A DNA stretch of 32,583 nt from a virus (taxonomy: Duplodnaviria > Caudoviricetes): IMG/VR virus record IMGVR_UViG_3300045789_000375, positions 1-32,583 of that record. One strand, given 5' to 3'. The notes under the pieces are model-generated. The model was not told the origin of the DNA, ran no database searches, and worked only from the letters and a program-made list of their open reading frames with translations. Within the stretch, counting starts at the first letter, position 1. The number at the start of each line of letters is the position of its first letter. Made by a program: the position numbers and the translations under genes. This document shows positions 568 to 24,075 of the stretch, piece after piece.

Positions 568-885
568 ATGGCTATCATATCATCAGCTCTGGCTAGGACA
601 GCCTTTGCCCTGACAGAGGGCACCCTCTTTCAACCCCCAACAGATGACACAACTACAATTATCACAAACATAGTTGTAGTCAATACTGCAGCATCTAGCG
701 CTAACTTCACTATATTACTAGACGACACAGAGCTGTTCAGTAATACCGTTATTCCTGGAAACTCCACTGTCTCTATCGACCTGAGGCAGGTTCTAGATGC
801 TCAGCCTGCACCGAGAAAAAAAATCACTGGGTTCGCAACAGCCACCACAGTCAAAGTCCACATCAGCGGAGTTGAGATAATCTAA
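568..885 (+). CDS. Small virion/fibre-associated beta-sandwich protein (hypothetical)
   Basis: 105-aa beta-rich ORF (IITNIVVVN...VKVHISGVEI). Its stop overlaps the next ATG (TAATG). Confidence 0.6.
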   Translation: MAIISSALARTAFALTEGTLFQPPTDDTTTIITNIVVVNTAASSANFTILLDDTELFSNTVIPGNSTVSIDLRQVLDAQPAPRKKITGFATATTVKVHISGVEII

Positions 886-3800
886 TGAGTATAGAACAGA
901 TCCCAGCAGTAAGTTCAAGATTCAACCCAATCGAGACGCTTCTCGATCCAGTAAACAAATTCCGCGTCTCACAGGCGCAGGCGCTGATTGACACCGACTT
1001 CGAGTACGGTATTCAGCAGTCAAAATGGGAGAACCTGGCCGTTACTAATAACCGGCCTTTCTCGTATCCTACGGCAGCACCGATGCCAAACCTTAACCTT
1101 GTAACGATGCTACAGGGAAGCAGAACTGTAACTGTAGACTTAACCACAAGGTCAGCAGTGGTCAATGCTGCTAGCCCTTCCAACCCTGAAGCTGGTGACG
1201 TTACTTACACAACTACCACCAACCACCTTTTCAATACAGGAGAGTTTGTTACTGTTACCGGATCTAACATTTCGGGGTATAACGGCACATTTATGGTGAC
1301 GCAGGTTCTGACTTCAAACACGTTTACAGTAGATAACTTCACTACCGGGACCGAATCCTTCAGCAATGGACTGGCAGTTTTTGGCGTAGCTCCAGTCAAC
1401 GGAACTCCTATAGCCATTCAGGACGCGTTCCTTGCCAATGCAAATGGTAACTTTATCGTCGAGTCTGGTGGCGGCACTGGTACCTTTACGTATGTTGGTC
1501 GCTCTCAGAACAGAACTGTCATCCAAGACCTAAGAGACGTCAACAAGACTGCTATTTTTCCTGGTGTTCTATACACTGACGCCAGAATCGGACTTGCTCC
1601 AACAATTTCTAACTCTGGGCTAGCAGTTACAATAACGACAACTGTCCCTCACGGATTGTCAATAGGTAACACTATTGCTGTCAACGGAGTCACTGGAACT
1701 AATGCGCCAAACGGAGCGTATCAGGTAGCAACTGTAGCCACTCCAGACAGCTTTATGTATTTTGCCGATCCAGGTGAGGGCACGCCTTCTGGCCTTTCTT
1801 CCACTGCTGCGTCAATATTCGTCAGACCACAGGGGCAGTTCTTGCACCGTCCGTTTGATGGTGGAGTGATCTTCTCTTCTAACTCAACTTCCAACTATGA
1901 AGCTGCAATCCGTCAGACCAGACGTTACTTTAGGTATCAGTCCGGTAAGGGATTGCAGATCTCATCTGGAACAATCTTGAAGCCGTATCAGACTGTTGAT
2001 GGGCTCACATCTACTGGCTTGACAGCCACAGTAGTGTCTAAAGAGCAGCACAACCTTTCACCGGGAACCGAAATACTAATTGAAGGCGCAAATGAAGCGG
2101 CCTACAACGGTACTTTCACTGTGACTGAGATTACTGGATTTAACTCTTTTAATTACCTAATCGCAGAGGCTGCCCCATCTCCAGCAACAGGAATTATCAA
2201 CCTAAATGTTAACAAGTGGTACGGCGGCACTAACAGGCTTGGAGCTTTTGACTTCCAAAACGGAATCTTCTGGGAGTACGATGGTCAGCAGCTTTGTGTA
2301 GTTAGAAGGTCATCTACTCAGCAGATCTCAGGTAGATCTTCTGCGGTGCAAGGATCCAACACTGTGGTCCGCACTAGTGAGTCATTCCCTACCTCATACT
2401 CAAGCCAGTTAATTCCTGGTGACTATGTTGTAATTCGCGGTCAGTCATACAGAGTTACCGCAATTGATGACCTGTCAGTTACACCTAACTTCACCATCTC
2501 CCCGTCATATAGAGGAGCAACTGCAGAGCACATAACCGTGTCTAAAACTGTAGAAACCAGAATCCCTCAGTCTGAATTTAATTTAGACACGGTAGACGGT
2601 AACGGACCTTCAGGCTACAACATAGACCTGACCAAAATGCAGATGTTCTACATTGACTACTCTTGGTATGGTGCCGGATTTATCCGTTGGGGTCTTCGTG
2701 GCATTAACGGCGATGTCTTCTATGTCCACAAACTGCCTAACAACAACCTTAACAACGAAGCATACATGCGATCCGGTAACTTGCCTGCAAGGTACGAGTC
2801 AGCAACGCTTCCACCGAGCACCCGTCTAGAGGCCACTTTCTCAAACTCGGGCTCGACAATGACTGTATCCTCTACCGCTGGGTTCCCACCTACAGGGACC
2901 ATAGTGATTAGGCCTAGCACCGTATCCAACCAAGCAACCCTCCTTCACGAGTATGTGAACTATACCGGGGTGACAGCTACGTCATTTACTGGAATAACCA
3001 GGGCTCAAGCTGGTGCAACCGTGACTACAACTTGGCTTGTAGGCTCAAACGCGGGCACGGTATCTAGTGCTACCGGTATACAAATTGGTCAAAGGGTAAC
3101 ATCTACTGTGTCACCTAATCCAGTACCAGAGGGTTCATACGTTACCGGGATAGCTGGCACTATTATTACCCTAAATAATGCGCTAACTGCGGCAAATCCT
3201 GGATTGATCTTCGCGCCTATGGGGGCAACTTCCGGTCAGGCGTACACATACAGTGCTCCGTCACCTACAACAGTAGAGTTGGCATTCCCTTCATTTGCAC
3301 CGACTATCTCCCACTGGGGAACGTCGATGATCATGGATGGTAAATTTGATGATGACGCTTCCCTTGTGTTTACATATGGTCAAACAGGCTCAGTAACAAT
3401 TGGAGCGGGTAGATCTAGAGCATTGTTCTCAATTAGACTGGCACCATCTGTTGACAATGGGTCTGTTGGAAGCTTTGGTCAGCGAGAGCTGATCAACAGA
3501 ATGCAGCTAAAACTCAACACTATTGGAATGACGACTACCTCACAGAACACAAACTACCTAGTTCGTCTGTATCTAAATGCTATTCCTTCTAGACTGGTTC
3601 TTTGGGGTTCACCAACTGCCTTCGAGCCAGGAACTGGTAACTCGTCACTATCGCAGATTGCTGACTACAGAACAGTAGGAACAGTACTTGTTTCAGGTGG
3701 TGAGATCACTGGTGGATTCTTGTCAGCCGGTACAGACTCCATTAGCCTAGAAAAAGTTCGAGACCTAGGTAACTGTATTCTTGGCGGTGGAGGCTCTTCT

Positions 3801-3917
3801 GCCGAAACCGGAGTGTACCCTGACGGTCCAGACACCATTACTGTAGTAGTTACCAACTTGTCGACTAACACGGCGTCCTTCCAGGGTCGTCTGTCATGGA
3901 CGGAGGCACAGGCCTAA
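885..3917 (+). CDS. Large virion structural/appendage protein, paralog A (1010 aa)
   Basis: Thr/Ser/Gly-rich beta protein with repeated T..H.L..G..V...G.....YNG.F.V modules. It is colinear with 15390..18374 (shared ALIDTDFEYGIQQ, RQTRRYFRYQSGKG, MFYIDYSWYGAG, SWTEAQA end). Confidence 0.7.
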   Translation: MSIEQIPAVSSRFNPIETLLDPVNKFRVSQAQALIDTDFEYGIQQSKWENLAVTNNRPFSYPTAAPMPNLNLVTMLQGSRTVTVDLTTRSAVVNAASPSNPEAGDVTYTTTTNHLFNTGEFVTVTGSNISGYNGTFMVTQVLTSNTFTVDNFTTGTESFSNGLAVFGVAPVNGTPIAIQDAFLANANGNFIVESGGGTGTFTYVGRSQNRTVIQDLRDVNKTAIFPGVLYTDARIGLAPTISNSGLAVTITTTVPHGLSIGNTIAVNGVTGTNAPNGAYQVATVATPDSFMYFADPGEGTPSGLSSTAASIFVRPQGQFLHRPFDGGVIFSSNSTSNYEAAIRQTRRYFRYQSGKGLQISSGTILKPYQTVDGLTSTGLTATVVSKEQHNLSPGTEILIEGANEAAYNGTFTVTEITGFNSFNYLIAEAAPSPATGIINLNVNKWYGGTNRLGAFDFQNGIFWEYDGQQLCVVRRSSTQQISGRSSAVQGSNTVVRTSESFPTSYSSQLIPGDYVVIRGQSYRVTAIDDLSVTPNFTISPSYRGATAEHITVSKTVETRIPQSEFNLDTVDGNGPSGYNIDLTKMQMFYIDYSWYGAGFIRWGLRGINGDVFYVHKLPNNNLNNEAYMRSGNLPARYESATLPPSTRLEATFSNSGSTMTVSSTAGFPPTGTIVIRPSTVSNQATLLHEYVNYTGVTATSFTGITRAQAGATVTTTWLVGSNAGTVSSATGIQIGQRVTSTVSPNPVPEGSYVTGIAGTIITLNNALTAANPGLIFAPMGATSGQAYTYSAPSPTTVELAFPSFAPTISHWGTSMIMDGKFDDDASLVFTYGQTGSVTIGAGRSRALFSIRLAPSVDNGSVGSFGQRELINRMQLKLNTIGMTTTSQNTNYLVRLYLNAIPSRLVLWGSPTAFEPGTGNSSLSQIADYRTVGTVLVSGGEITGGFLSAGTDSISLEKVRDLGNCILGGGGSSAETGVYPDGPDTITVVVTNLSTNTASFQGRLSWTEAQA

Positions 3918-4783
3918 TGCCAATTGACTTTCCCGCCGAACCCGCAGTTGGTGATGCGTATACCTTTAACAACCGAACCTGGCTTTGGTCAGGCGAGGTT
4001 TGGACTCCAGATCGAGCAAAGTACACTGTAGACCGAGACATTGTCACGGACGTAGATGGTTATTTAGTGGCATCAGTCACTACCTCAACCGAGGTGGGCT
4101 ATCTTGCTGGGGTGACATCCTCTGTACAGGTTCAGCTAGATGAGAAGGCTCCAAGCCTTAGTCCTGTTTTCACTGGTGACCCTACTGCGCCAACGGCAAA
4201 TGCAAATCAAAGTGATGCTCAAGTTGCTACAACCGCTTTTGTCATTGGGCAAGCCGCCTCTGTTGCTCCGCTATCTGATGGAGCGAGTGCTGCTATTGGC
4301 ACATCTGTCAAGTACGCAAGGCAGGACCACGTCCACCCAACCGATACTTCTTTGGCGACAAAGGCCAGCCCTACTTTTACAGGCACAGTTACTGTGGCAG
4401 CCGAAGGTATTCAGTTCACCGATGGGGTACAGTTAAAACAAGGCACCCCGTCACTTACAGTGATTAAGCCTGCCATAACATCAAACGCAACTACCTCAAC
4501 ATTGTCTTCCCCTCTCACGTATAGAGATGCCCTAGTTGCAGTAGCAGGAGCATTCACAATCACGGTTGACCCTGACACTACTAACTCCGTCACCTTTCCC
4601 ATAGGAACTAGCCTCAACTTCTACCAAAGCGTAGGAACTGGAGGCGCGTCCATAGTAGCTGGAAGCGCGAGCGTTACTCTACTAGTGACGCCTGGATTGG
4701 TCTTCAGAGACCTGAACTCTTCAGTCTCTCTGACAAAAATTGCAGCAAATACTTGGTTGGTTTTCGGCGACCTAAAGGCCTAA
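3917..4783 (+). CDS. Tail fibre protein (start revised to MPIDFP at 3917)
   Basis: The ATG overlaps the upstream TAA and has GGAGG at 3902-3906. It carries an N-terminal IDFP..P..G..Y...W.W.G..W module, SPVFTGDPTAPT and YARQDHVHP fibre motifs, and a C-terminal ...NTWLVFGDLKA module shared with 12452..14224. Confidence 0.75.
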   Translation: MPIDFPAEPAVGDAYTFNNRTWLWSGEVWTPDRAKYTVDRDIVTDVDGYLVASVTTSTEVGYLAGVTSSVQVQLDEKAPSLSPVFTGDPTAPTANANQSDAQVATTAFVIGQAASVAPLSDGASAAIGTSVKYARQDHVHPTDTSLATKASPTFTGTVTVAAEGIQFTDGVQLKQGTPSLTVIKPAITSNATTSTLSSPLTYRDALVAVAGAFTITVDPDTTNSVTFPIGTSLNFYQSVGTGGASIVAGSASVTLLVTPGLVFRDLNSSVSLTKIAANTWLVFGDLKA

Positions 4784-4795
4784 TTAAATTTAAGG

Positions 4796-4801
4796 TAGAC
4801 T
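4796..4801 (+). promoter_or_regulatory. Putative -10 element (TAGACT) for a near-leaderless transcript of 4810..6156
   Basis: ggTAGACT lies 8 nt before ATG 4810 in an AT-rich gap with no well-placed SD. It matches the actinobacterial TAnnnT consensus. Confidence 0.45.
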
Positions 4802-4809
4802 GACATACT

Positions 4810-6156
4810 ATGAGCAAAGAACCAGGTAAAAGGTCCCAGCAGCAGAACGACTTTCTAGAGCCGGGAACCCCGATAAATGTAGTGGCAACTAACGTTGGCA
4901 CAGATCGACCATTCAATGATGGTGCTGCGTCCATATCTTTTGAGATACCAGCTGGGTCACCTCCAGTAGATCTATACACCGTAACTGTATATAGAGGTGC
5001 CACTGCTCAGGATGCAACTGCCACAAATACGACTGGCACATCTTCCCCTATCGTTGTAGGCGGACTAGACTCAAACGTTCAATATAGATTCACAATCAGC
5101 GCAAGCAACACATCTGGAGCTACTCCAGAATCAGACTCTACCCCTCTAATACTTATAACAACAGTACCAGCCACCCCCGGTGCTCCTGCCATACAGAACT
5201 TCTCAAATGACCAGAATGACTACTTAAGTTGGAGCCACCCAACAAACGGCGGCACAGTGCTGCTTACATATTTCTGGGAGAGTAACGACAGCAAGTCTGG
5301 TAGCGTTGCCTACAATGGCACAACAGCAGTCGTACCCCAAGAAGGTGGCACTCAGCAGCAGTACCGACTTAGAGTTACAAATGCTAATGGCACCTCGGAG
5401 TTCTCTGCCTTTTCTGTTGTAGCCTTTACTCCTCCATTCTTCCCGCCGTTCTTCCCATTCTTCCCACCATTCTTCCCATTCTTCCCGTTCTTCCCACCAA
5501 GCTTCCCATTCTTCCCATTCTTCCCGCCTGCCTTCCCGTTCTTCCCATTCTTCCCACCTAGGTTCCCGTTCTTCCCGTTCTTCCCACCTAGGTTCCCGTT
5601 CTTCCCGTTCTTCCCACCTAGGTTCCCGTTCTTCCCGAACTTCCCTAGGTTCCCGTTCTTCCCGCCTAGGTTTAAGAGTCGCTGTCTAGCCGCAGAGACG
5701 CCTCTATTCTCGGTTGACGGTACTTGGATTTTTGCAGATAAAGCAAAAGTTGGAGACAAGCTTATGACGATCTCAGGTGCGCATATTGACATGCAGAAGC
5801 TTGTAGATACCAAGCTGTCCGCAAAACTGCCAGAACATGTAGAACTAGTCGAAACAGAAATTGTTTCTATAGAAGTGAAGACTTCAGTGTTGGTCGGATT
5901 CAATGTAAGCAGAATTACAGAAAAGAGATACTCTGTGACTCAGCCGATCCTTGTTGAGATCGCTACCGGCCTGACTTACGTGAATGCAGGAGATGTCAAA
6001 CTAGGAGACGTACTAATAGGAGTCCTAGAAGACGGTCGTGTGACAAGGACCACAGTCGAGTCTATAGAGCTTGACGATGTTGAGTCTGAGGTATTCGATA
6101 TTAGAACCTCACCTCTGCCTTGGTTCCTTGCTGAGAACTTCATAGTAATAGCCTAA
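4810..6156 (+). CDS. FN3-FN3 / Pro-Phe repeat / C-terminal Hint-domain protein
   Basis: Two fibronectin type III-like domains (PGTPINVVAT...YRFTISASN; PATPGAP...YRLRVTNANGTSEFS) are followed by an 81-aa Pro/Phe tract. A Hint-like domain then starts at Cys292 (CLAAETPLFSVDG...KVGD...AGDVKLGDVL...VFDIRT...FLAENFIV). Confidence 0.8.
   Translation: MSKEPGKRSQQQNDFLEPGTPINVVATNVGTDRPFNDGAASISFEIPAGSPPVDLYTVTVYRGATAQDATATNTTGTSSPIVVGGLDSNVQYRFTISASNTSGATPESDSTPLILITTVPATPGAPAIQNFSNDQNDYLSWSHPTNGGTVLLTYFWESNDSKSGSVAYNGTTAVVPQEGGTQQQYRLRVTNANGTSEFSAFSVVAFTPPFFPPFFPFFPPFFPFFPFFPPSFPFFPFFPPAFPFFPFFPPRFPFFPFFPPRFPFFPFFPPRFPFFPNFPRFPFFPPRFKSRCLAAETPLFSVDGTWIFADKAKVGDKLMTISGAHIDMQKLVDTKLSAKLPEHVELVETEIVSIEVKTSVLVGFNVSRITEKRYSVTQPILVEIATGLTYVNAGDVKLGDVLIGVLEDGRVTRTTVESIELDDVESEVFDIRTSPLPWFLAENFIVIA
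5431..5673 (+). repeat. 30-nt coding tandem repeat encoding FPPxFPFFPF decamers
   Basis: There are six in-register units at 5461-5640 (x = F,S,A,R,R,R). Units 5551-5580 and 5581-5610 are identical (ttcccacctaggttcccgttcttcccgttc). 73 of 81 codons are Pro or Phe. Confidence 0.95.
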
Positions 6157-6166
6157 AAAGATAGGA

Positions 6167-6201
6167 GGGAGGTGGCTTCGGCTACCTCCCTTTTATTTTT
6201 T
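6167..6201 (+). terminator. Rho-independent terminator
   Basis: Stem gggaggtggc / gctacctccc with a cUUCGg tetraloop, followed by ttttatttttt, about 10 nt after the 4810..6156 stop. Confidence 0.9.
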
Positions 6202-6259
6202 ACTATACTTATGCAGCACAAAACCGCAAACTCCAATGCAAATATCTATAAACTTGGTA

Positions 6260-6265
6260 TAAGAT
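6260..6265 (+). promoter_or_regulatory. Putative -10 element (TAAGAT), leaderless start of the oxygenase cluster
   Basis: TAAGAT + 6 nt + ATG (6272), with no SD, located just downstream of a terminator. Confidence 0.55.
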
Positions 6266-6271
6266 ATAAGT

Positions 6272-7021
6272 ATGGAAAATTACGATTGGTTTACAAAGGA
6301 CAGATCTGAGACTTCAGCCAATAGGCTGCCAGACAGAGTGATCCCCCAGCACCCTGAGGTTACAGTAGCTAATGTGGCTCTGGGCATAAATGTCTATAGC
6401 GGAGCAATAACCAAAGCCCAAGGGCAGAAGCACATAGACACCTTAGAGTCCAAACTTTCTGGGCAGGGTGGATACCAGTGGAATGGCGCAATGGTAACCA
6501 ACTCCGCAGAGGTAACTGTGAGTGCACGTAACGCTCTAGACTTTAAAATGAACTCTACAGCCTTCGGTCCTCGCAACCAGGATAACGCAGAGCTGTATGA
6601 CATGCACGAAGAGGTGTTTAGGGCTGTAAAAAAGTGCGTAGACGATTACGGTAACAACTGGGGCGTAGGCATTGCATCCTATGAGGCCTTCAACTTTGTT
6701 AAGTATGACGGACCTGGTACGCACTTTAAAGTTCACGCTGACCATGGCCCAACATATGTGTGCACCATCTCAGTTTGCGTGTATCTAAATGATGACTATG
6801 AAGGAGGAGAACTTTGGTTCCCTCGCATGGACGGACTGACCATAAAACCTAAAGCCGGGGATATAGCGGTCTTCCCATCAACATACATATACGAACACGC
6901 CTCAGAAGAAATGATCTCAGGAGTGAAGTATGCAGTAGTCATCATGACCGACTACAATGACCGAGATGATGTGAATCACAAGGTCTCTCCTGTTATACAA
7001 GACTACGAACTAAAATACTAA
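6272..7021 (+). CDS. 2OG-Fe(II) oxygenase, prolyl-4-hydroxylase-like (1)
   Basis: HxD (KVHADH), YLNDDYEGGELWF, distal His (YEHAS) and GVKY (2OG-binding basic residue). Confidence 0.9.
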   Translation: MENYDWFTKDRSETSANRLPDRVIPQHPEVTVANVALGINVYSGAITKAQGQKHIDTLESKLSGQGGYQWNGAMVTNSAEVTVSARNALDFKMNSTAFGPRNQDNAELYDMHEEVFRAVKKCVDDYGNNWGVGIASYEAFNFVKYDGPGTHFKVHADHGPTYVCTISVCVYLNDDYEGGELWFPRMDGLTIKPKAGDIAVFPSTYIYEHASEEMISGVKYAVVIMTDYNDRDDVNHKVSPVIQDYELKY

Positions 7022-7032
7022 AGGACTGACGC

Positions 7033-7791
7033 ATGGACGTACAAGAGCACGTTGGAGCTCCAGATGAAGAAATGCAAGGTCAAATGGACGCTCACAACCG
7101 GAGACTGCAATCGTGGTACAAGATAGACGAAAAGACCTGGTCAGACGCTAGAGAAGTAGTGCCAGGGTCAGGTATTTGGGTCTATGAAAACGTCATACCA
7201 AAGACTCTAAATGTGATAAACAGGCTAGAAGAAGTTTTGACTAGCCCAAATAATAACTATAGGTATGCGGAAGCGCTAGTAGGGTACGGCGTTAAGATGC
7301 CTGAATACCGAGACTGCTTTGACTTTAAGTACAAGAAGACAGACATTGAGTCAGACAGATCAGAAGCTGGGCAGAAGTTAGTGCAGCTTTGGGAAGACAC
7401 CCACTACAGGCAGCTCCAGGCCGTAAGGGACTACACACAAAGGTATAACATTGGAGAGCTCCGCTACTGGGAGGCTACAAATTATGTCAAGTACGGTCCA
7501 GGACAGCACTTTCAGGAGCATCACGACCACGGATACTCGTATAACTGCGTAGTCTCACTAGTCGCATTCCCCAATGATGACTACGAAGGTGGCGAGCTGG
7601 CTTTTAGTATTCAAGGAGTCACTGTGAAAGCAAAAGCTGGAGACCTGTACGTGTTTCCATCTAATTTTATGTATCCACACCGAGCCATGCCCGTGACTTC
7701 TGGGACTAAGTACTCAATGGTCACAATGCTTGACTACTCTGATAAGTATCACAGTGCGAGGTTTTACCAAGAAGAAGAGACTGGAATTTAG
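7033..7791 (+). CDS. 2OG-Fe(II) oxygenase, prolyl-4-hydroxylase-like (2)
   Basis: HxD (EHHDH), NDDYEGGELAF, FPSNFMYPHRAMPVTSGTKY. SD aaagga upstream. Confidence 0.9.
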   Translation: MDVQEHVGAPDEEMQGQMDAHNRRLQSWYKIDEKTWSDAREVVPGSGIWVYENVIPKTLNVINRLEEVLTSPNNNYRYAEALVGYGVKMPEYRDCFDFKYKKTDIESDRSEAGQKLVQLWEDTHYRQLQAVRDYTQRYNIGELRYWEATNYVKYGPGQHFQEHHDHGYSYNCVVSLVAFPNDDYEGGELAFSIQGVTVKAKAGDLYVFPSNFMYPHRAMPVTSGTKYSMVTMLDYSDKYHSARFYQEEETGI

Positions 7792-8513
7792 TGAAAAAGG
7801 TTTTTGCCTATACTAACGGTGGCAATGGGATTGTAGAGCAGCTACCACTGCAGCGGTCTTGGATGGATGCCACATTTTCTCGTCACGCCTATCACTGCTT
7901 CCCAGTTTCTATTTCTAATAGGCTCGGCTGGGGGCTGTCTTTCCCAGAGGATATATCTTTTATATGGGACGGCATAACTGACGAGAGAGATAGCCACGTA
8001 AAAATTCTATCTGGCGATCAGTATGCAAACTCTAGGCGTGGAAGTGCGACCGTTAGTTTTGAGACAGACATGACCTTCGTGGGAGAGAACGGTGAAAATC
8101 TGACCTTGCTGACCATGCCAGTTCCAAATCAATTTATTAGAGGCGCTCAGTGCATGACTACAACACTTAGCACATCAGTTCTAGCTGGAGACTTGCCAAT
8201 TGCATGGATGATTACCGAGCCAAATATTGTAATAACAATACCGGCTTATACACCAATAGCAGCAATCATCCCAATATCTCTTACAGACATCCAAGATCAT
8301 GAGCTAGAGATCACAAAAGGCGGTAGGCCAACTTTCGAAACAGAAGAGTTTATGGAGAAGATGAAGGGGAGAGCTGAAGCCAGCATGCAGTTAAACTCTA
8401 AAGGAGAGTGGACACACTTCTATAGAGACGCTGTTTGGCCCGATGGTGCCCCAGCAGGAAAACATGAAGCTAAAAAAATTGTAATGAAGATAAACTACAT
8501 TGCCAAAAATTAA
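7791..8513 (+). CDS. DUF6065-like protein (dUTPase-like beta fold, function unknown)
   Basis: R.WMD...HAYHCFPVSISNRLGW...P.DI, P.PNQF and IPAYTPIAAIIP motifs recalled as typical of DUF6065. The GTG start overlaps the upstream TAG. Confidence 0.6.
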   Translation: MKKVFAYTNGGNGIVEQLPLQRSWMDATFSRHAYHCFPVSISNRLGWGLSFPEDISFIWDGITDERDSHVKILSGDQYANSRRGSATVSFETDMTFVGENGENLTLLTMPVPNQFIRGAQCMTTTLSTSVLAGDLPIAWMITEPNIVITIPAYTPIAAIIPISLTDIQDHELEITKGGRPTFETEEFMEKMKGRAEASMQLNSKGEWTHFYRDAVWPDGAPAGKHEAKKIVMKINYIAKN

Positions 8514-9231
8514 ATTTGTCAGAAATAGGCCATGGCTTACGGTGGAGAGTGACTCTTCACCTAGACCGACAGTGAGGACATTGCCTGATTGGTACCGTAA
8601 AGCAGACCGTTTTGCCATAAACCCACATACCAATGAGCACTGGGAAGATCCCCAAGTCGGAGGAAAAATCCCTACGTGGAAGGCATGTCCGGCAATTTTT
8701 GACATCATGGGGGCAGGGTACGTTTACCGAACTCCCTGTGACATAGAGTTTTACGAAGAGAATGGTCAGCTTAAAGTAAAAGTTTCTGATTTCAAAAATC
8801 AACAGTTTGTCTCAGTCAGACCGCCTATGTATCAGTTTACTCCCCCAATGGGATACCATGAAGCTCATTTTGCATGGTGGGCTGATTGGGCCGTAGAGGT
8901 TCCGGATGGGTACAGCGTTTTGTACTCTCAGCCATTTAATCGTTTTGAGCTACCATTCCTGACAACTAGCGGGATTATAGATAACGATAAAGTCAATTTG
9001 CCTGGCACTATGCCATTCTTTATTGTCAAGGGCTTTACTGGTATCATCCCGGCGGGTACGCCGTACGCTCAGATGCTGCCTTTCAAGAGAGAGAACTGGG
9101 AGTCTGAGACAGATGATAGCGTAAAGATGTCAGACATGTCAGTAATAAACGAAAAAAATAGTGAAAAATATCGAGTAGCAAATGGCGGGGTGTACCAAAA
9201 AGAAGTATGGGAAAGGCGTACCTATGAGTGA
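8500..9231 (+). CDS. DUF6065-related phage protein (second, divergent)
   Basis: PDWY...TWKACPAIFD...GY...TPCDI, P.NRF.LPF...SGIID.D and IPAGTPYAQMLPFKRE.W show the same motif order as 7791..8513. TTG start with a 14-nt overlap. Confidence 0.55.
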   Translation: MPKIKFVRNRPWLTVESDSSPRPTVRTLPDWYRKADRFAINPHTNEHWEDPQVGGKIPTWKACPAIFDIMGAGYVYRTPCDIEFYEENGQLKVKVSDFKNQQFVSVRPPMYQFTPPMGYHEAHFAWWADWAVEVPDGYSVLYSQPFNRFELPFLTTSGIIDNDKVNLPGTMPFFIVKGFTGIIPAGTPYAQMLPFKRENWESETDDSVKMSDMSVINEKNSEKYRVANGGVYQKEVWERRTYE

Positions 9232-9237
9232 TGTAAG

Positions 9238-9924
9238 ATGAGTGATATGAGAGATAAAAAAATATCTAATGAAAATCACCAAGAAGAGCCCAGGGTGTCA
9301 GTCACCCCTTCCGGTTTTTTCGGGTCATCCGCAAACAACATAGTCACCCTGGACAACTTTATGACAGAAGAAGAACTGTCCTACCTTAATAACTTTGCAC
9401 GGAACAATACTACGTGGGACCACACCGAGTCGCACTACAATGAGGACGGCCTTTGTATATACGATGCTTCCTATTGGGCAGATCGTGTCGCCACTGATGA
9501 CTCCCTAAACTCAGCAGATCCTAACGTCGTTGGTATAATTGTGGGCATGCAGGCCCGCCTGAAGGTAGAAGTAGATAAATTTTTTAATGTAGACGCCCTT
9601 CCTACTAGTGCTGCAGTAGTTAGATGGCTTCCGGGCCAGTTCCAAAACCCTCACGCAGACAAAGAGCTACACGAGGGAGAGAATAAAGGTAAACCTAATG
9701 ACTTTCCTTACTACGACATCGCCGGGTTGTTCTACATAAACAACGACTACGAAGGTGGAGAGCTATATTTCCCAGAGCAAGGCATACAGTTTAAGCCAAA
9801 AGCTGGGTCAGCATACTTTTTTCCAGGAGATATGAACTACATTCACGGAGTTTCCGAGATTGTGTCTGGAATTAGGTACGTTTGTCCTTTTTTCTGGACA
9901 ATCTTACAACATAAAGGAGAATAA
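9238..9924 (+). CDS. 2OG-Fe(II) oxygenase, prolyl-4-hydroxylase-like (3); start may be ATG 9247
   Basis: HxD (NPHADKE), YINNDYEGGELYF, YIHGV...GIRY. TAAGAT at 9234-9239 lies 7 nt before ATG 9247. Confidence 0.9.
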   Translation: MSDMRDKKISNENHQEEPRVSVTPSGFFGSSANNIVTLDNFMTEEELSYLNNFARNNTTWDHTESHYNEDGLCIYDASYWADRVATDDSLNSADPNVVGIIVGMQARLKVEVDKFFNVDALPTSAAVVRWLPGQFQNPHADKELHEGENKGKPNDFPYYDIAGLFYINNDYEGGELYFPEQGIQFKPKAGSAYFFPGDMNYIHGVSEIVSGIRYVCPFFWTILQHKGE

Positions 9925-9925
9925 A

Positions 9926-10660
9926 ATGTCGTTTTTTGTTGACAAGGTAGACGTCAGTACTTTTAAGATATACAAAGATGAGCCAACCACTATTAGCGAG
10001 TTGGGTATTAAGCAGAATAAGATCATAGAAATACCTAACTTTGTGACGCCAGAAGGCGCACAGAAAATGATCGACTACATCGAGTCGTATTCTGACCTCT
10101 GGGGAGGTATTGCTTTTTACGGCTCTTTAGGTATGGGTCTACATCCAGACGACCCTAAACTAGCTGAATTTGGACTACCTCCGATGTATTTTGACTCTTT
10201 GAGGAACAGGTTCCAAGAAGCAATAGAGCTAGTTTTTGAGCGACCAGTGAAAGCAAACACATCACATGCCCAGAAATGGGATGTTGGCGGCTTTGCTTCT
10301 CCACACTCGGACAATTCCGATTTTGATGGGAAGCCCAACGCTTTTGAGATCAATAAGTACGTCGGGATTCTATACCTCAATGGGGACTACGAGGGTGGAA
10401 ATCTGTTTTTCCGAGACCATAACATATCCTTTCAACCTGAAGCTTATTCGCTCATCTGCTTTCCAGGCGGGGTAGAGAACATACATGGAGTAGAAGAGAT
10501 ACTGAAAGGCACCAGATACACGATGGTATCTTTCTGGGACTTCAAAGAAGCAGTGTACTCTGATGATAAGGAAGCCGCCTGGGTAGAGGAGATCGCAGGG
10601 ATTCGGGGAGAGCAAGCCGAGCAGAAAATCGAATGGGATAAGGGCAACAAGTACGCCTAA
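9926..10660 (+). CDS. 2OG-Fe(II) oxygenase, prolyl-4-hydroxylase-like (4); start revised to 9926
   Basis: SD aaggag precedes ATG 9926. HxD (SPHSDNS), YLNGDYEGGNLFF, NIHGV...GTRY. Confidence 0.9.
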   Translation: MSFFVDKVDVSTFKIYKDEPTTISELGIKQNKIIEIPNFVTPEGAQKMIDYIESYSDLWGGIAFYGSLGMGLHPDDPKLAEFGLPPMYFDSLRNRFQEAIELVFERPVKANTSHAQKWDVGGFASPHSDNSDFDGKPNAFEINKYVGILYLNGDYEGGNLFFRDHNISFQPEAYSLICFPGGVENIHGVEEILKGTRYTMVSFWDFKEAVYSDDKEAAWVEEIAGIRGEQAEQKIEWDKGNKYA

Positions 10661-10711: not shown

Positions 10712-10738
10712 GGGTAAAATATAAGAGACACTTTACCC
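10712..10738 (+). promoter_or_regulatory. Putative promoter (ggTAAAAT -10) inside a 7-bp inverted repeat
   Basis: TAAAAT at 10715-10720. gggtaaa (10712-10718) and tttaccc (10732-10738) are reverse complements. The site is where structural genes resume. Confidence 0.4.
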
Positions 10739-10752
10739 TGAGGGACAGTCGC

Positions 10753-11112
10753 GTGCGCTATTTTAACTCAAATGTTTATGACATCCTTGTAGATCAAGGC
10801 TCAACGCTCCACCGCGCTCTGTTTTTAAAGACTTCAGCGAAAAAGCCAATAGACCTTAGCGGGTACATAGGCAGAATGCAGATAAGAGACTCCAAAGACT
10901 CTAGCGTAATAGTTCAGGTTTTAACAACTGAAAATAATGAAATTGTAATATATGAACTACTTGGAAGAGTGGACATTCTACTACCACCAACGGATACGGA
11001 AGCCCTTGAGGCAAAGGACTACGTCTACGATCTAGAATTAGAGTCACTGGAAGGCGATGTGACAAAAATAGTCTCAGGAAAACTAACTGTAAGAGCGGAG
11101 GTGACTTTCTAA
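10753..11112 (+). CDS. Virion beta-sandwich protein (fibre-attachment, BppU/LtfC-like)
   Basis: Y.I.VDQGST...PIDLSGY.GRMQIR...YVYDLEL...G.LTV..EVT pattern, common in front of phage fibre genes. Confidence 0.6.
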
Positions 11113-12451
11113 TGCTTTCAGATGATTACGCATACTTAGTCGTTACTGCACCCGGTCCTCAAGGGCCTGCTGGTTCAGGGATCTTACAAGAAGGGGATGT
11201 AGTAGCTGGCGCTACCGGCCCAACAGGTGCAACTGGCTCCACGGGGCCCACTGGTATTGCTGGAGATACAGGTATTACTGGCCTCCAAGGAGCTACTGGC
11301 CCAACTGGTGCAACTGGTGCCATAGGTTCAACCGGTGCAGCTAGCACTGTTGCTGGTCCAACAGGTGCAACCGGTGCAACCGGCTCCACTGGTGCAACTG
11401 GTGCCATAGGTTCAACCGGTGCAGCTAGCACTGTTGCTGGTCCAACAGGTGCAACCGGTGCAACCGGCTCCACTGGTGCTTCCGGCTCAGTGGGCCCAAC
11501 AGGGTCAACAGGGTCAACAGGGTCAACAGGGTCAACAGGTTTGACTGGCGCGACTGGTGCAACTGGTGTTGCAGGTGCCGTAGGCCCAACGGGCTCAACT
11601 GGTACTTCCGGATTGACAGGTTTACAAGGTGCAACTGGTGCGACTGGTTCAACCGGTACCGCTGGTGCAGTTAGCACCGTTCCAGGACCCACAGGCGCAA
11701 CCGGTTCAACTGGCTTAACAGGTCTTCAAGGAGCAACTGGTTCAACTGGCTTGGCAGGCTCAACAGGTGCGACCGGCTCAGCAGGGCTGATCGGACCGAC
11801 AGGTGCGACTGGTTCAACCGGACTAGCAGGCTTACAGGGATCAACAGGTCCAACTGGTGCAACAGGTGTTGCAGGTCCAATTGGCCTAATCGGTCCAACT
11901 GGGGCAACAGGTGTTGCAGGTATTGCTGGTCCAACCGGTTCAACTGGCTCCACGGGTTCAGTAGGCCTGACTGGTGCAACTGGTGCAACTGGTGCAACTG
12001 GTGTTGCAGGGTCAACTGGGCCAACAGGCACTACTGGATTAACGGGTCTTCAAGGGCCAACAGGTCCAACTGGGTCAATTGGTGCCACTGGCTCAACAGG
12101 CCCAACAGGTCCAACTGGGTCAATAGGTCTGACAGGTGCGACAGGGTCGACAGGACCTACTGGTGCTCAGGGTACATATACAGTTAGCGACAGCCCCCCG
12201 TCCTCCCCGAGTGAGGGCGATGCCTGGTTTAACACAGTAAACGCAAAATTCTTTATTTACTATGACAACTTCTGGATAGAGGTTGCAACCGCTGACATTG
12301 GTCCAACTGGTCCAACCGGCTCAGCTGAGTCCTTAAGCGAGATTGCAGACGTAGAGTTAACTATTTTAGTAGAGAATGGTGAGCTACTTGCTTATAACTC
12401 CTCGACTTCTAATTGGGAAAATGTAAGTGTTATTGATGGAGGAACACCCTA

Positions 12452-12452
<1 letters not shown>
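11112..12452 (+). CDS. Collagen-like fibre protein 1
   Basis: About 320 aa of G-x-T triplets (GPT/GAT/GST), then PSEGDAWFN...YYDNFWIE and an IDGG end. Confidence 0.85.
11304..11479 (+). repeat. Exact 84-nt tandem duplication within a collagen gene
   Basis: The unit starting actggtgcaactggtgccataggttca occurs at 11304 and 11388. A (tcaacaggg)n 9-mer run follows near 11497-11540. Confidence 0.85.
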
Positions 12453-14224
<1,772 letters not shown>

Positions 14225-14253
14225 TATGACAAACATAGATAGGTGGTCACAAA

Positions 14254-15390
14254 GTGGCAATTAACTTTCCAGACAACCCCGTTCTGAATGACCAATTTAC
14301 CTCGGGTGGCACCGCTTGGGACTGGAACGGCTCCGTGTGGAGCGTTGTTCGCAGCGGAATTATTGGGCCGACAGGTGCAACAGGACTGACAGGACCTACT
14401 GGCGCAGCTGGGCAAGGTCTGGATGTTTTAGATACTTATGCCACATATGCAGATTTAATTGCTGCACACCCAACTGGTTCAGTTGGAGATGCTTATACAG
14501 TAGGCATAGAGCTGTATATTTGGTCGACTAGTGCCTCTAACTGGGCGAGCCTTGGGGACATAGTAGGTCCAACTGGTCCGACAGGATTAACGGGCCCAGA
14601 CTCTACCGTCGAAGGACCAACAGGACCGACTGGATCCGAGGGGCCTATTGGCGTGACTGGACCGACTGGGCTAACCGGTGGTTTTGGTCTGACTGGGTCT
14701 CAGGGAAGCCCTGGAGTACAAGGGCCTACTGGTGCCCAAGGGGTTATTGGAGTTACTGGCCCAACAGGGTCAACCGGTCTAACTGGCGCACAGGGACCAA
14801 CGGGTGCCGTAGGTTCGCAGGGTCTAATCGGAATCACGGGACCAACCGGGCCAATAGGTATCCAAGGCGTGACTGGCCCAACTGGTTCAATCGGATTTGA
14901 TGGGCCAACAGGACCGCAAGGATTTACTGGTGACATCGGGTCAACAGGTCCAACCGGAACGACGGGCCCTGACGGAACCTTTTACGCCTCAGAAACCGAA
15001 CCAGTTGGTCCAGTTGAAGGCGATGTTTGGTATGACACTACCGTAGGTAACACTTACGTCTACTACGACTCTTTTTGGGTTGGCACTGGTGGGGGAACTG
15101 CGTACGGTAACTGGAGCTACGTAAACGCCAATAGAGTTGCCCTGGCAAACGAAGGCTTCCTGGCAGATACGTCTAACGGAAGCTTTACAATCATCTTGCC
15201 TGAAGCACCTCAAGTGGGGGAGTCTGTTGCTATAATTGACCTAGAGAAGTCATTTAAGAGAAATGGCTTAATCTTGTCTGGCGGTGCATCGCTAATAGAA
15301 GGAAGAACCGACAACATGCTATTGAACGTTGATGGGGCTTCGGTACTCCTCAGATATGTTGGATCTTCTTACGGATGGAGAATCGTATAA
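14254..15390 (+). CDS. Collagen-like fibre protein 3
   Basis: GTG start with SD aggtgg. INFP module, GxT collagen, EGDVWYD module and a C-terminal DTS.G.FTI.LP..P.VG...D...GW domain of the kind seen in long tail fibres. Confidence 0.85.
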
Positions 15391-18374
15391 TGACACAATT
15401 TTTATCAAACTTTAACCAGAATTTTGCCCCCTCTCAGGAGTTTACTGATCCAGTAGGTAAACTTCGTGTCTCTCAGCCGCAGGCCCTTATTGACACTGAC
15501 TTTGAGTACGGCATCCAGCAGACCAAGTGGGAATCCCTATCCATGATCAACAATAGGCCCTTTGCCTATAATTCTGCTATCGCCTTAAAGAACGTTGCTA
15601 GCATGTTGATGACTGCTGGGTCGAAGATTGTAACTGTGAACCTGACCACTAAAGCGAAGTCAGTAAACGCAGTTACCATATCGGAGCCAGCAACCGGGTA
15701 CGTCACATACACGACGAGCACAGACCATGGATTTATTATTGGAGAGTACGTCAGCCTCTCAAACCTAACTTCTGCATATAACGGTCTCTACCAAATTGTT
15801 GAAGTCGCATCGGCTACCACATTTGCCGTAGTCAATGCCAGCACAGCTACTGTTACTGACTCTGCTGGTACTGCTATTTCTGGATATGCACCTCCAACTG
15901 GCTCTATCATTACTGTGATTGACACACTACTCAAGCCTGCAGATGGTACTTTTCTAATTGAGAGCGGTGGTGGCAGTGCTCAGTTCACTTACTATGCTAC
16001 TTCTGAGAACATTTCATCATTTACATCCATTGTTGATGACAATAAGACATCCATCTTTTCTGCAACAGCATATTCATCTTCCGCTATAGGGGCTGCCCCA
16101 ACTGTGACGTATAGCGGGCTGGCTGTTACCGTGGAGACCACCGTGCCTCATGGGCTGTCAATAGGAAATACTGTTGCGCTGACGGGCACCACGGCTACTA
16201 CTAATGCCCCAAACGGTTCTTGGACCGTGTCGACCGTGCTGGATCCAACAACCATAATCTTTTATGCTGATGCTGCGCCAACAGGCACTATTGCTGGGAC
16301 CGCTGTTCTATATGTCAGGCCTCAGGCGACCTTTGCGCATAGACCGTTTGATGGTGGAGTGATCTTTTCTACGAACGGCAACTCTAATAACCAACAGGCC
16401 ATTCGTCAGACCAGACGTTACTTTAGGTATCAGTCCGGTAAGGGATTGCAGTATAGCTCTGGTAGCTTGCTAAAGCCTTCGTTCCAGCTCGATGAACTCT
16501 CTTGTGTTGGCGACACTATAACAATTCAGACAAAAGAGGCGCACAACCTAGTTCCAGGCGTTGGGATTAATATTATTAACGCTGATACAACGGGGTACAA
16601 CAACTCTTATACCGTTGACTCAGTTTTAACCTACAACAGGTTTACTGTAAAGACGCTTATATCTCTTGACGCACGTGCTACTGGAAGATACTATATAACC
16701 GTCAGCGATTGGACTGGCTCCGTAGTAAGGATCGGTCTATTTGACGATCAAAACGGAATCTTCTTTGAGTACGACGGTCAAGAACTCTACGCCGTACAGA
16801 GAAACTCTACCTACCAAATCGCTGGAAGAGTCACCGTAACCAATGGCGGTAACACCGTATCTCAGACGAGCATAGACTATCCAACTAACTTTAATAGCCA
16901 AGCAGCTCCAGGGGACTATATCGTTCTTCGAGGTCAGTCGTATAAGATTCTCAGTATTGAGAGCGACACTAGCCTAACCATTGCTCCTTCATATCGAGGA
17001 GTGTCTACTGCTAACGTTGTTGTTTCTAGAACGTTTGATAAGAGAATCCCTCAATCAGAGTGGAACATAGACAAGGCAGATGGTACTGGATTCTCAGGGT
17101 ATGAAATTGACCTAAATAGAATGCAGATGTTCTACATTGACTACTCTTGGTATGGTGCTGGTGCAATCCGATGGGGCATGCGTGCAACCAACGGTGAAGT
17201 TACCTATCTACACAAAGAGATAAACAACAACAATAATCTAGAGGCATACATGCGCTCTGGTAACCTCCCAGGTCGCTACGAAACCAACACCGTTCCAGTT
17301 TACACGAAACTGTACAGCACCCTAGGCGCTCTAGACACCACGCTGTATGTTGACTCTACTGCAGAGTTCAACGATTCAGGCACTCTAACCATTAGAAATG
17401 GTAGCAGTATAGAGATCGTGAACTACTCTAGCAAGAGCGCCAGTTCATTTAATGGACTTGTTCGCGCAAAATCAGGAAATCCTTCTGTAGACCTTACTAT
17501 TGCTATTGGATCTTCTGTGGGTACAGTGTTTGCTGAAGTAGATCTAGTGAATATCCAAATTGGGCAGAGAGTTATTTCAAATAGTTTTCCCGAGGGTACG
17601 TTTGTAGTTGGTATAGCCGGAAGCGTTATTACATTTAGCAAGGCAGCAACCACTGCTAACCCTACCGGAGTTATTTTTGCACCCCTAAGTTCATTGGGAC
17701 AGAGCTTTGCTTTCTCCACAACTGCACCAGTAATTGTAGAGAACTCGTACCCTGGATTCTCCCCAACAGTCTCGCACTGGGGGACTTCTGTAATTATGGA
17801 CGGAGGGTTTGATGACGATAAGTCGTTGGTGTTCACCTACGGACAGAAAAACAGCATCTCTATTGCTCCGGGAGTTACTAGAGCTATATTCTCAATCCGA
17901 ATAGCACCTTCTGTGGACAATGGTTTAATTAGTCAATTTGGTGGCAGAGAGATAGTTAACAGGATGCAGTTGATTCTAAGAAGCCTAGGAATATCTGCAA
18001 GGACTAATGGTAACTTCTTGGTACGCGCAATTCTTAACGGTACGCCAGCAACTACTCAAAACTGGACAGATGCTATCGGTGGAGTGGGCGCACAATCTAA
18101 CTCATCGTTAGCGCAGATTGCCGACTACAGCTCTAGAGACATTCCAATTCTTGGCGGAGAAGTAGTAGCTGGGTATTTTGTTGCTGGAACTGGAAGCTTA
18201 GATCTCTCCCTAGTGCGAGAGCTTGGAACTTCCATCTTGAGCGGTGGAGTGCCAGCAGTACGCGAGCAGATATTCCCAGATGGTCCAGACGTTCTTACAA
18301 TCATTGTGACCAACACAGGTTCTAGCACAGCACAGATGCTTGGTAGAATCTCTTGGACAGAAGCTCAGGCATAA
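15390..18374 (+). CDS. Large virion structural/appendage protein, paralog B (start revised to 15390)
   Basis: The ATG overlaps the upstream TAA and has GGAG upstream. It is a full-length paralog of 885..3917. Confidence 0.7.
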   Translation: MTQFLSNFNQNFAPSQEFTDPVGKLRVSQPQALIDTDFEYGIQQTKWESLSMINNRPFAYNSAIALKNVASMLMTAGSKIVTVNLTTKAKSVNAVTISEPATGYVTYTTSTDHGFIIGEYVSLSNLTSAYNGLYQIVEVASATTFAVVNASTATVTDSAGTAISGYAPPTGSIITVIDTLLKPADGTFLIESGGGSAQFTYYATSENISSFTSIVDDNKTSIFSATAYSSSAIGAAPTVTYSGLAVTVETTVPHGLSIGNTVALTGTTATTNAPNGSWTVSTVLDPTTIIFYADAAPTGTIAGTAVLYVRPQATFAHRPFDGGVIFSTNGNSNNQQAIRQTRRYFRYQSGKGLQYSSGSLLKPSFQLDELSCVGDTITIQTKEAHNLVPGVGINIINADTTGYNNSYTVDSVLTYNRFTVKTLISLDARATGRYYITVSDWTGSVVRIGLFDDQNGIFFEYDGQELYAVQRNSTYQIAGRVTVTNGGNTVSQTSIDYPTNFNSQAAPGDYIVLRGQSYKILSIESDTSLTIAPSYRGVSTANVVVSRTFDKRIPQSEWNIDKADGTGFSGYEIDLNRMQMFYIDYSWYGAGAIRWGMRATNGEVTYLHKEINNNNNLEAYMRSGNLPGRYETNTVPVYTKLYSTLGALDTTLYVDSTAEFNDSGTLTIRNGSSIEIVNYSSKSASSFNGLVRAKSGNPSVDLTIAIGSSVGTVFAEVDLVNIQIGQRVISNSFPEGTFVVGIAGSVITFSKAATTANPTGVIFAPLSSLGQSFAFSTTAPVIVENSYPGFSPTVSHWGTSVIMDGGFDDDKSLVFTYGQKNSISIAPGVTRAIFSIRIAPSVDNGLISQFGGREIVNRMQLILRSLGISARTNGNFLVRAILNGTPATTQNWTDAIGGVGAQSNSSLAQIADYSSRDIPILGGEVVAGYFVAGTGSLDLSLVRELGTSILSGGVPAVREQIFPDGPDVLTIIVTNTGSSTAQMLGRISWTEAQA

Positions 18375-18377
18375 TCC

Positions 18378-23833: not shown

Positions 23834-24075
23834 TTATTGAACCTCTACGTCATTAAGAAAGACTAGCTGCCAGTAATGCACAGCCAGTAGGACCATCATA
23901 CACTTTAAATACACAAATGCAACTTATTGATTGAAAAACTAAAATGAGCTGCGAACCTAATGGACGTATGCACAGTTAAATGACCTATGTCAATATAAGG
24001 TAAAATATTATAAACAGAGATATAAGGTGCGAAACTAATCGTATTCCAAAATCTTCTAGAGAAACAGTATATTAG
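23834..24075. promoter_or_regulatory. AT-rich divergent promoter region
   Basis: A 242-nt gap between divergent genes. It has TATGAT on the - strand (atcata 23895-23900) and ggTAAAAT on the + strand (23999-24006). Confidence 0.5.

Follow-up and report, generated by a model that had tools for sequence, protein, structure and literature searches.

A phage gene block that pairs a Pro/Phe-repeat protein with oxygenases and DUF6065 proteins: a predicted system for tailoring the virion surface

Introduction

Aquatic phages carry many oxygenases of the 2-oxoglutarate- and Fe(II)-dependent type (2OG-Fe(II)) that have no assigned substrate, and none was named in the 2010 description of the array of Synechococcus phage Syn9. 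In the part of that description available to us, Iyer et al. (2010; PMC2938197) report ten dioxygenases together with a Cys protein of dUTPase fold and propose that the array serves the synthesis of secondary metabolites; for bacterial hydroxylase/sulfotransferase operons the same part proposes collagen-like or tail-collar proteins as substrates. The prolyl 4-hydroxylase (P4H) of chlorovirus PBCV-1 acts on Pro peptides, according to the accessible part of PMC7019647. Here we analyse seven genes in a 32,583-nucleotide stretch of phage DNA (Duplodnaviria; Caudoviricetes; IMG/VR record IMGVR_UViG_3300045789_000375, positions 1 to 32,583), which as a whole we call the window. The first gene encodes a protein with fibronectin type III (FN3) or immunoglobulin-like (Ig) domains, a Pro/Phe tract and a C-terminal Hint domain. 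It is followed by a cassette of four 2OG-Fe(II) oxygenases (OX1 to OX4) and two DUF6065 proteins (D1 and D2).

Repeat and enzymes form a real, tightly coupled module. Phages related to this one that bear another repeat also bear other enzymes, so the likely role of the enzymes is to decorate the repeat at the surface of the virus. We give a probability of about 0.55 to the block being a virion-surface tailoring system in which the adjacent oxygenases are predicted to hydroxylate the repeat. A literature search, with most subscription journals outside its scope, found nothing on such a pairing of repeat and enzymes or on DUF6065, and no paper on a polyproline autotransporter in Sinorhizobium or on phage virion hydroxyproline formed via 2-oxoglutarate.

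Results

Linkage of the repeat and the enzymes

The seven open reading frames (ORFs) lie on the plus strand and are as an earlier note, made from the sequence alone, had drawn them: the repeat protein (4810..6156, 448 aa), OX1 (6272..7021), OX2 (7033..7791), D1 (7791..8513), D2 (8500..9231), OX3 (9238..9924) and OX4 (9926..10660). Of 8000 candidates scored against the repeat protein, 351 were homologues at E<=1e-3. We compared the best 80 of 194 loci of its relatives, the best 80 of 736 loci with relatives of OX1 and, as a neutral anchor, the best 80 of 388 loci of the upstream virion gene. Locus counts include near-copies; 184 loci reduce to 116 D1 lineages.

An enzyme gene lay within about 4 kb downstream of the repeat gene in 77 of the 80 loci picked by the repeat; two of the other contigs end at the gene, and the third locus (L070) has oxygenases about 7 kb upstream. 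When loci were picked by OX1, the tract was found upstream in 72 of 72 testable cases, the other 8 having too little upstream DNA. Thus repeat homologues living independently of the oxygenases, which the earlier note had named as the observation that would speak against its proposal, were mostly not seen. A pattern scan for the repeat alone returned 125 loci, 80 of them with flanks, and these comprised 55 loci with both enzyme classes, 7 with one class, 15 with none and 3 without a called tract. At the neutral anchor, 24 loci had both repeat and enzymes, 46 had neither (a class that may include blocks more than 10 kb away), 4 had D2-like genes only, 4 oxygenases only and 2 the tract only; a cassette of D1 and OX2 without a tract was not found among these 80.

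By best profile label, the 116 D1 lineages contain OX2 in 116 cases, OX3 in 114, D2 in 97, OX1 in 91 and OX4, an accessory gene, in 31. Relatives add sulfotransferases, an Asp/Asn beta-hydroxylase, methyltransferases, an SDR, glycosyltransferases and APS kinase. For instance, locus L173 combines a tract protein of non-FN3 type with two D2-like genes, a sulfotransferase, two hydroxylases, a methyltransferase and an APS kinase. This accessory set matches what a pathway that hydroxylates and then decorates would be expected to collect.

Repeat type and enzyme set

Three anchor loci had the same FN3-tract-Hint gene with a PP-free tract of the FGFSP type and no cassette. A scan that started from one such locus yielded 71 loci; we analysed 63 and set aside 8 weak matches. 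Orthologues of D1, OX1, OX2 and OX3 were present in none of the 63 (best scores 66-116 bits, against medians of 334-376). Fifty-eight of them, representing 22 lineages, carried a different oxygenase-like family, which occurred in 4 of the 282 earlier loci. The members of this family had no match in Pfam, PHROGs or PDB, and they are probably oxygenase-like, judging by an H-D-H...H motif seen by eye. D2-like pairs were present in 11 of the 55 FGFSP loci having at least 4 kb downstream. In L423 (8521-11932) and L459-L521, the FN3-(FGFSP)n-Hint protein is followed by one to three genes of the H-D-H...H family and another oxygenase. A third repeat grammar was seen in L126 (568-3633), where a 1021-residue protein has a (PTF)n tract and then a Hint domain; this genome also has a PP cassette.

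Among lineages with PP-type tracts, lone-Pro units made up at least 20% in 89 of 91 with OX1 but in only 1 of 25 without it. When ten OX1-less records were searched whole, the best OX1 match was 37-46% identical and, where checked, was the OX2 orthologue. The earlier note had raised the possibility that repeat composition co-varies with the enzyme set, and both the FGFSP swap and the OX1/lone-Pro pattern agree with it.

The repeat protein

The repeat protein is a putative virion appendage and the putative substrate of the cassette. Its architecture, which we drew from the ORF, Pfam and homologues, is FN3/Ig-FN3/Ig, Pro/Phe tract, Hint. The earlier note had read it as FN3-FN3-tract-Hint. Of this, the tract is clear and the Hint domain is there with a degenerate active site. 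The first FN3 domain (aa 37-111; 4918..5142, plus strand) matches Pfam fn3 at E 2.3e-5 and 24.9 bits, slightly below the cut-off of 25. The second Ig-like domain is unscored in the window copy and comes from homologues only, where it was scored (PKD_6; two fn3 stretches in L423).

The tract (aa 208-288; 5431..5673, plus strand) is built from x-F-P and x-F-P-P units. Its 81 residues are F40, P33, R5, S1, A1 and N1 (90.1% Pro or Phe), and its prolines fall into 15 lone Pro and 9 PP pairs. Tracts are carried by FN3 proteins, PASTA-domain proteins and fibre-like proteins of 900-1400 residues, often several per genome. In the large fibre-like proteins they are often internal, with folded domains flanking both sides, and some relatives have short tract-only genes. 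As the Pro/Phe repeat sits inside unrelated fibre-like proteins, it is best understood as a portable tag, not a precursor core. The segment after the tract varies in the 116 lineages: 60 have short tails, 27 Cys-rich tails, 19 a Hint by rule, 6 a Hint-like tail by eye and 4 an S74-like start.

Opposite the tract lies an antisense ORF (5352-5903, minus strand) with collagen-like G-K-N repeats. We set it aside as a gene: the same G-K-N pattern faces other tracts, so the frame is a reverse reading of the tract.

The Hint domain

The Hint domain (5683..6153, plus strand) has weak Pfam matches (E 2e-4 and 5e-3), and its ESM Atlas neighbours, at 0.92-0.93, are in PT-HINT/intein clusters. It has the fold and the first Cys (Cys292, preceded by Arg at -1) of the N-cleaving Hint type, but in place of the block-B T-x-x-H it has S-V-T-Q. 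The features for intein splicing are missing, as the protein ends in ...F-I-V-I-A, lacks the terminal His-Asn and has no downstream extein. This Hint cannot splice; it may self-cleave, as predicted from its sequence. In the available part of PMC6333167, many inteins, though not all, need the block-B His, and a bulky -1 residue can compensate for its loss. Of the best 120 homologues, 82 have a Hint tail, 28 have other tails and 10 have no called tract. In the aligned Hint tails, position 1 was Cys 77 times and Ser 5 times, block B had Gln in 66 and His in 16, and a terminal His-Asn was present in 24.

A Hint domain was found in about 25 of the 116 lineages, so it is optional, and it is dispensable for the system; the tail of L156, which had fallen into the Cys-rich bin, adds at least one more. 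In its position C-terminal to a displayed segment and in its Cys1, the domain resembles Hints of the Hedgehog/BIL type, from which the window copy differs by the block-B Gln and the missing His-Asn. At the same position other relatives carry a short S-x-R-[FLY]-K tail without a Pfam score, which we take, from the motif only, to be the putative start of an S74-type intramolecular chaperone.

The oxygenases

All four oxygenases match PF13640 (31.6-49.3 bits, cut-off 27). Four intact HxD...H sites had been claimed for them, and these are present together with a distal Lys or Arg: H155, D157, H209 and K219 in OX1; H163, D165, H216 and K226 in OX2; H139, D141, H203 and R213 in OX3; and H127, D129, H187 and R197 in OX4. 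OX4 starts at the ATG at 9926; the longest ORF begins at a TTG at 9860. OX1 is a paralogue of OX2.

The description of all four as P4H-like held for OX1 only, whose nearest solved structure is the Bacillus anthracis P4H (E 3e-4). The sole solved-structure match of OX4 is prolyl 3-hydroxylase 1 (P3H1; E 3e-8), OX3 weakly matches PiuC and P3H1, and OX2 weakly matches PiuC and the lysyl hydroxylase LH3. Thus the oxygenases are best called probable collagen-hydroxylase-type enzymes, two of them nearer to prolyl 3-hydroxylase. Two loci (L071, 3212-4750; L068, 4074-5612) have an OX1 with a long N-terminal extension that looks glycosyltransferase-like by eye; Pfam scored the oxygenase part alone.

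The DUF6065 proteins

The earlier note had called two genes DUF6065-like, and both assignments stand. D1 matches the DUF6065 profile (PF19541) at E 2e-24 and 86.6 bits and has an invariant H32/C36. D2 has no Pfam match, belongs to phrog_7084 and is DUF6065-like by ESM Atlas and by hhalign (probability 94.9, E 4.5e-8); C63, D161, D163 and Q191 are invariant in it. The invariant Cys residues of D1 and D2 are at aligned positions.

For the structure of D2 we used an alignment-based model (pLDDT 92.4) and set aside a single-sequence model (pLDDT 32.6). Compared by VIA, the model gave Z 9.4 and rmsd 2.4-3.2 A over 119-126 residues, and the top 22 rows were all members or derivatives of the dUTPase/dCTP deaminase superfamily. 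By this model, D2 has a dUTPase/dCTP-deaminase fold. Profiles of D1 and D2 gave nothing significant against PDB sequences, the best match being the WSSV dUTPase at E 0.43. D2 shares with trimeric dUTPases and dCTP deaminases the fold and the motifs G-x-I-D-x-D and G-T-P-x-x-Q, and differs by its added invariant Cys; D1 of this phage lacks the Asp pair. An active dUTPase has the fold and five catalytic motifs. By these motifs, D2 differs from trimeric dUTPases: the motif-3 Tyr after D-x-D and the C-terminal Gly-rich motif are absent from its alignment, and it has no dUTPase Pfam match.

DUF6065 outside these phages

In Sinorhizobium medicae a DUF6065 gene begins 10 nt after a gene for an autotransporter with a polyproline linker. 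We ranked 565 bacterial loci by likeness to this protein and used the best 80, a sample biased to its kin. Stretches with at least 15 Pro in 25 residues lay within 2.5 kb of DUF6065 in 35 of the 80 loci (379 kb of DNA), versus 3 farther away (612 kb). The neighbours that we checked include autotransporters, FecR proteins and a TPR protein, that is, unrelated carriers, and the DUF6065 gene follows or faces them (L289, 6448-9729; L293-L372). Nine Pro codons in a row were found at 3-4 sites in each of five of these genomes. An oxygenase of the present type was near DUF6065 in 1 of the 80 loci. Neither phage ancestry nor oxygenases are thus needed for DUF6065 to track proline runs, which supports a functional tie to the tract.

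Several other arrangements were seen. In three loci (L295, 3600-6831; L296, 4157-6855; L305, up to 2312), the gene for the polyproline autotransporter is broken into two ORFs close to the run of prolines, which may be slippage, phase variation or an assembly error. In L337 (5453-13469) and related Xanthomonadales loci, DUF6065 lies on the opposite strand between a TldD/PmbA-type protease gene and yhdP-rng and has no polyproline neighbour. One bacterial DUF6065 gene follows a collagen-like protein. Haloviruses of the HF1/HF2 type have a lone D2-like gene that faces the tail module at its edge (L288, 6848-7738; L291, 5857-6690). HRTV-7 has a Gly-rich tail-region protein near its D2-like gene, and Syn9 gp36, gp38 and gp39 are likewise Gly-rich; D2-like proteins may accompany polyglycine segments and not polyproline alone. 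In L432 (15062-18875), three D2-like genes surround genes for a PF11397 GlcNAc-transferase and an oxygenase, and no Pro/Phe tract was called in the 10 kb around them.

Transcription signals

The block had been credited with its own promoter-like and terminator signals. An intrinsic-terminator-like hairpin with a T run is found 3' of the repeat gene (6156..6205, plus strand; -26.2 kcal/mol, z -5.6, 0 of 200 shuffles), and an extended -10-like element, TGGTATAAG, is found 8 nt 5' of the OX1 ATG (6255..6263, plus strand). No terminator after 10660 was listed by a simple scan, which also missed the hairpin at about 6156-6205. An mRNA starting from the -10-like element would be leaderless or nearly so.

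The same layout is common in relatives. Under a strict test, a hairpin was called in 27 of the 60 lineages with a short gap, and a stricter form of the extended -10 motif was present in 42 of 54 relatives versus 3.8 in shuffles. Because the hairpin and the extended -10 element both recur, the cassette is likely a transcription unit of its own. The earlier note had treated a terminator between substrate and enzymes as a caveat; given its recurrence before the first oxygenase, the arrangement is no anomaly. A separate unit fits enzymes made before the late proteins, and would fit host-directed genes equally well.

The window and its flanking genes

By Pfam and PHROGs, the window encodes virion and fibre genes, a primase/helicase, a glycosyltransferase and WhiB. 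From the WhiB gene, presumably a mark of actinobacterial hosts, the host is likely an actinobacterium. Upstream of the block are a virion structural protein (phrog_5838) and a tail-fibre-like gene (885..4783, plus strand); downstream are a fibre-assembly-like gene, collagen-like fibres and a second phrog_5838 gene (10753..19442, plus strand). Thus the block does interrupt the fibre genes, as had been described.

We considered the collagen-like fibres as the main substrate. Their triplets, including those at 3-533, have Pro at position X in 87 of 290 and at position Y in 1 of 290, and the presence of such fibres is unrelated to that of the cassette (6 of 24 versus 18 of 56 loci, p 0.6). On the rarity of Y-position Pro and the lack of co-occurrence we rejected them in that role; X-position Pro may still be hydroxylated. 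In the fibres at 11112-19442 most Y positions are Thr. A family-2 glycosyltransferase with TPR repeats is encoded at 26001-27068, and a second, separate system for fibre glycosylation is possible. The motif GGTAAAAT, followed by an AT-rich run, occurs at 10716-10731 and at 24013-24030, before the downstream fibre block and the gene at 24076, respectively, and is a possible phage promoter.

Public runs containing this stretch are mainly ice, seawater and marine metagenomes, with one from freshwater. No RNA runs were among those listed, which says nothing on expression. Contigs of four runs showed no junction deleting the tract or the cassette within the parts they cover. Of the 37 variants listed inside these genes, 28 are synonymous (in OX1, 20 synonymous to 1 non-synonymous); 16 further variants are outside this tally. 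Neither the repeat protein nor D1 had a match among the isolated phages of an annotated collection.

Discussion

We have proposed a model that addresses how the tract might be presented, modified and used. A fibre-region protein would display the Pro/Phe tract, four 2OG-Fe(II) oxygenases would hydroxylate its prolines and possibly other residues, and the two DUF6065 proteins, of predicted dUTPase fold, would bind or process the proline-rich stretch. Transcription of the cassette from its own extended -10 promoter would place the enzymes in the cell before the late virion proteins. We propose that PP pairs are handled by OX2, OX3 and D1 and lone Pro between aromatic residues by OX1, and that in relatives the new hydroxyls may then be glycosylated, sulfated or methylated. 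The Hint domain would be an exchangeable C-terminal cap that at most self-cleaves at Cys292, leaving the tract at the end of the protein. The decorated tract may alter adhesion, receptor contact or protease resistance.

Besides linkage, this tailoring model rests on gene content, intact metal sites, folds, the swap of repeat and enzymes, and separate transcription signals. In its favour are also the solved-structure matches to P4H, P3H1 and LH3, the bacterial DUF6065 genes next to polyproline proteins, the accessory genes beside tracts in relatives and the excess of synonymous variants in OX1. A number of results weigh against it. The phages are related, so there are few independent events: on a quick D1 tree (2 of the 116 lineages were left out as too short), the absence of OX1 amounts to 4 changes, with 1 independent pair on well-supported branches. 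With so few changes, the link between OX1 and lone Pro is suggestive and not significant, and the exchange of PP for FGFSP tracts may be a single event. The number of oxygenases (1-12) and tract length are uncorrelated (Spearman 0.08, n=65). Minor tract residues do not track enzyme families, as 1 of 88 tests reached p<0.005 (Tyr with one family, p 0.004) and was not significant after correction. PiuC is among the PDB matches of OX2 and OX3, all of them weak; D2-like genes are also seen where there is no PP tract; and in 45 of the 80 bacterial loci DUF6065 lacks a polyproline neighbour within 2.5 kb. When nine enzyme-less tract loci were searched as whole records, D1 was found in one only; most of these records are incomplete (seven are 5-53% complete), and one complete record of 455 kb has only a short tract-like ORF. 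Also, the available part of PMC7019647 states that hydroxyproline was undetected in purified PBCV-1 virions despite an active P4H.

Three other explanations have to be set against this. The cassette might be a set of auxiliary oxygenases that act on host metabolites or proteins, on nucleotides or on other fibres, and that stand next to the repeat because one island was inherited. The few independent tree changes would be expected here, as would the nucleotide-enzyme fold of D1 and D2. P3H-type enzymes act on X-position Pro of collagen, such as that in the window collagens (87 of 290 triplets), and a bacterial DUF6065 gene does follow a collagen-like protein. The Syn9 array, too, follows fibre genes that are Gly-rich rather than Pro-rich, and secondary metabolites were proposed for it in the part of PMC2938197 available to us. 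We nonetheless regard mere co-inheritance as unlikely. It does not account for the fact that another repeat type at the same locus comes with other enzymes, for the pairing that persists with a different carrier protein in L173, for the failure of collagen to track the cassette (p 0.6) or for a bacterial DUF6065-polyproline link that is independent of phage ancestry. Somewhat less probable again, in our view, is that the cassette, and DUF6065 above all, helps to make, fold or solubilise a tract that stays chemically unchanged in its mature form. Ribosomes stall at PP motifs, and EF-Tu is a substrate of some bacterial prolyl hydroxylases; help could thus come by relief of stalling at PP, by chaperoning of a polyproline-II rod or by hydroxylation of host translation factors. 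This idea is kept alive by the bacterial DUF6065 genes, which sit beside polyproline autotransporters and FecR proteins with such an oxygenase in only 1 of 80 loci, and it fits the absence of D1 where the tract has no PP and the cassette's own promoter-like element. It leaves unexplained, however, the 4-12 divergent oxygenases, the co-inserted sulfo-, glycosyl- and methyltransferases and the dedicated oxygenase family of PP-free tracts.

The earlier note had itself cast the repeat as the core of a precursor in the manner of ribosomally synthesized and post-translationally modified peptides (RiPPs), hydroxylated and then freed or conjugated as a separate product through the Hint thioester. Position 1 of the Hint, which is Cys or Ser in all 82 aligned tails, and the short tract-only genes of some relatives favour this, as does the compensation for a lost block-B His by a bulky -1 residue described in the available part of PMC6333167, the residue here being Arg. 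Tailoring enzymes are also clustered with a repetitive, ribosomally made protein, as in RiPP systems, if the tract is indeed their substrate. However, about 25 of 116 lineages have the Hint domain at all, block B is Gln in 66 of 82 tails and His-Asn is present in only 24 of 82. In RiPPs a core is removed by proteolysis from a short precursor with leader or follower; here the tract is fused to folded domains and often internal in large proteins, and Pfam and PHROGs revealed no peptidase, transporter or leader-binding gene in the cassette. Nor would cleavage free the tract, because the Hint lies on its C-terminal side and the tract would stay joined to the FN3 domains. As the domain is optional, degenerate and so placed, we have dropped the release reading, which now seems highly improbable.

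A broader version of the tailoring model is a code of tags and enzymes. Portable aromatic/proline tags would be placed on many virion proteins, and each repeat grammar would have its own enzymes: D1, OX2 and OX3 for PP pairs, OX1 for lone Pro and a separate family for FGFSP. DUF6065 would be a Cys-dependent enzyme for proline tracts, built on the dUTPase fold and used by bacteria on the linkers of polyproline autotransporters. Taken jointly, these proposals are tentative and less likely than not to hold in full.

The system supplies a specific candidate substrate for phage oxygenases and makes predictions for each enzyme: OX1 should act on F-P-F, OX2 and OX3 on F-P-P-F, and none of them on FGFSP. 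If the tailoring model is true, phages encode a sequence-programmed hydroxylation of virion proteins, which would also be a source of peptide hydroxylases for Gly-free proline sequences. The link to polyproline gives the DUF6065 family a testable function.

Comparison with known systems

The closest known system is the Syn9 array, which, in the available part of its description, likewise combines tandem 2OG-Fe(II) oxygenases with a conserved-Cys protein of dUTPase fold. Syn9 gp43 and D2 both match phrog_7084, and both blocks follow fibre genes. Syn9 differs in adding two tryptophan halogenases and a JmjC protein, of which the Pfam scan of the window found none. The fibre genes next to the Syn9 array are Gly-rich, and gp32-gp40 contain no Pro/Phe tract. 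The bacterial beta-hydroxylase/sulfotransferase operons, as the accessible part of PMC2938197 presents them, resemble the present block in that a co-encoded low-complexity surface protein is the proposed substrate. Hydroxylation followed by sulfation is proposed there, and relatives of our cassette carry a sulfotransferase, an Asp/Asn beta-hydroxylase and an APS kinase. In contrast to these operons, the block described here has a Gly-free Pro/aromatic tract in a phage and a core of PF13640 and DUF6065 proteins, with no sulfotransferase in the window. The PBCV-1 P4H is a single enzyme of a eukaryotic virus, and it was not among the solved-structure matches of OX1-OX4. What sets the present system apart from Syn9 is a dedicated repeat that varies with the enzyme set.

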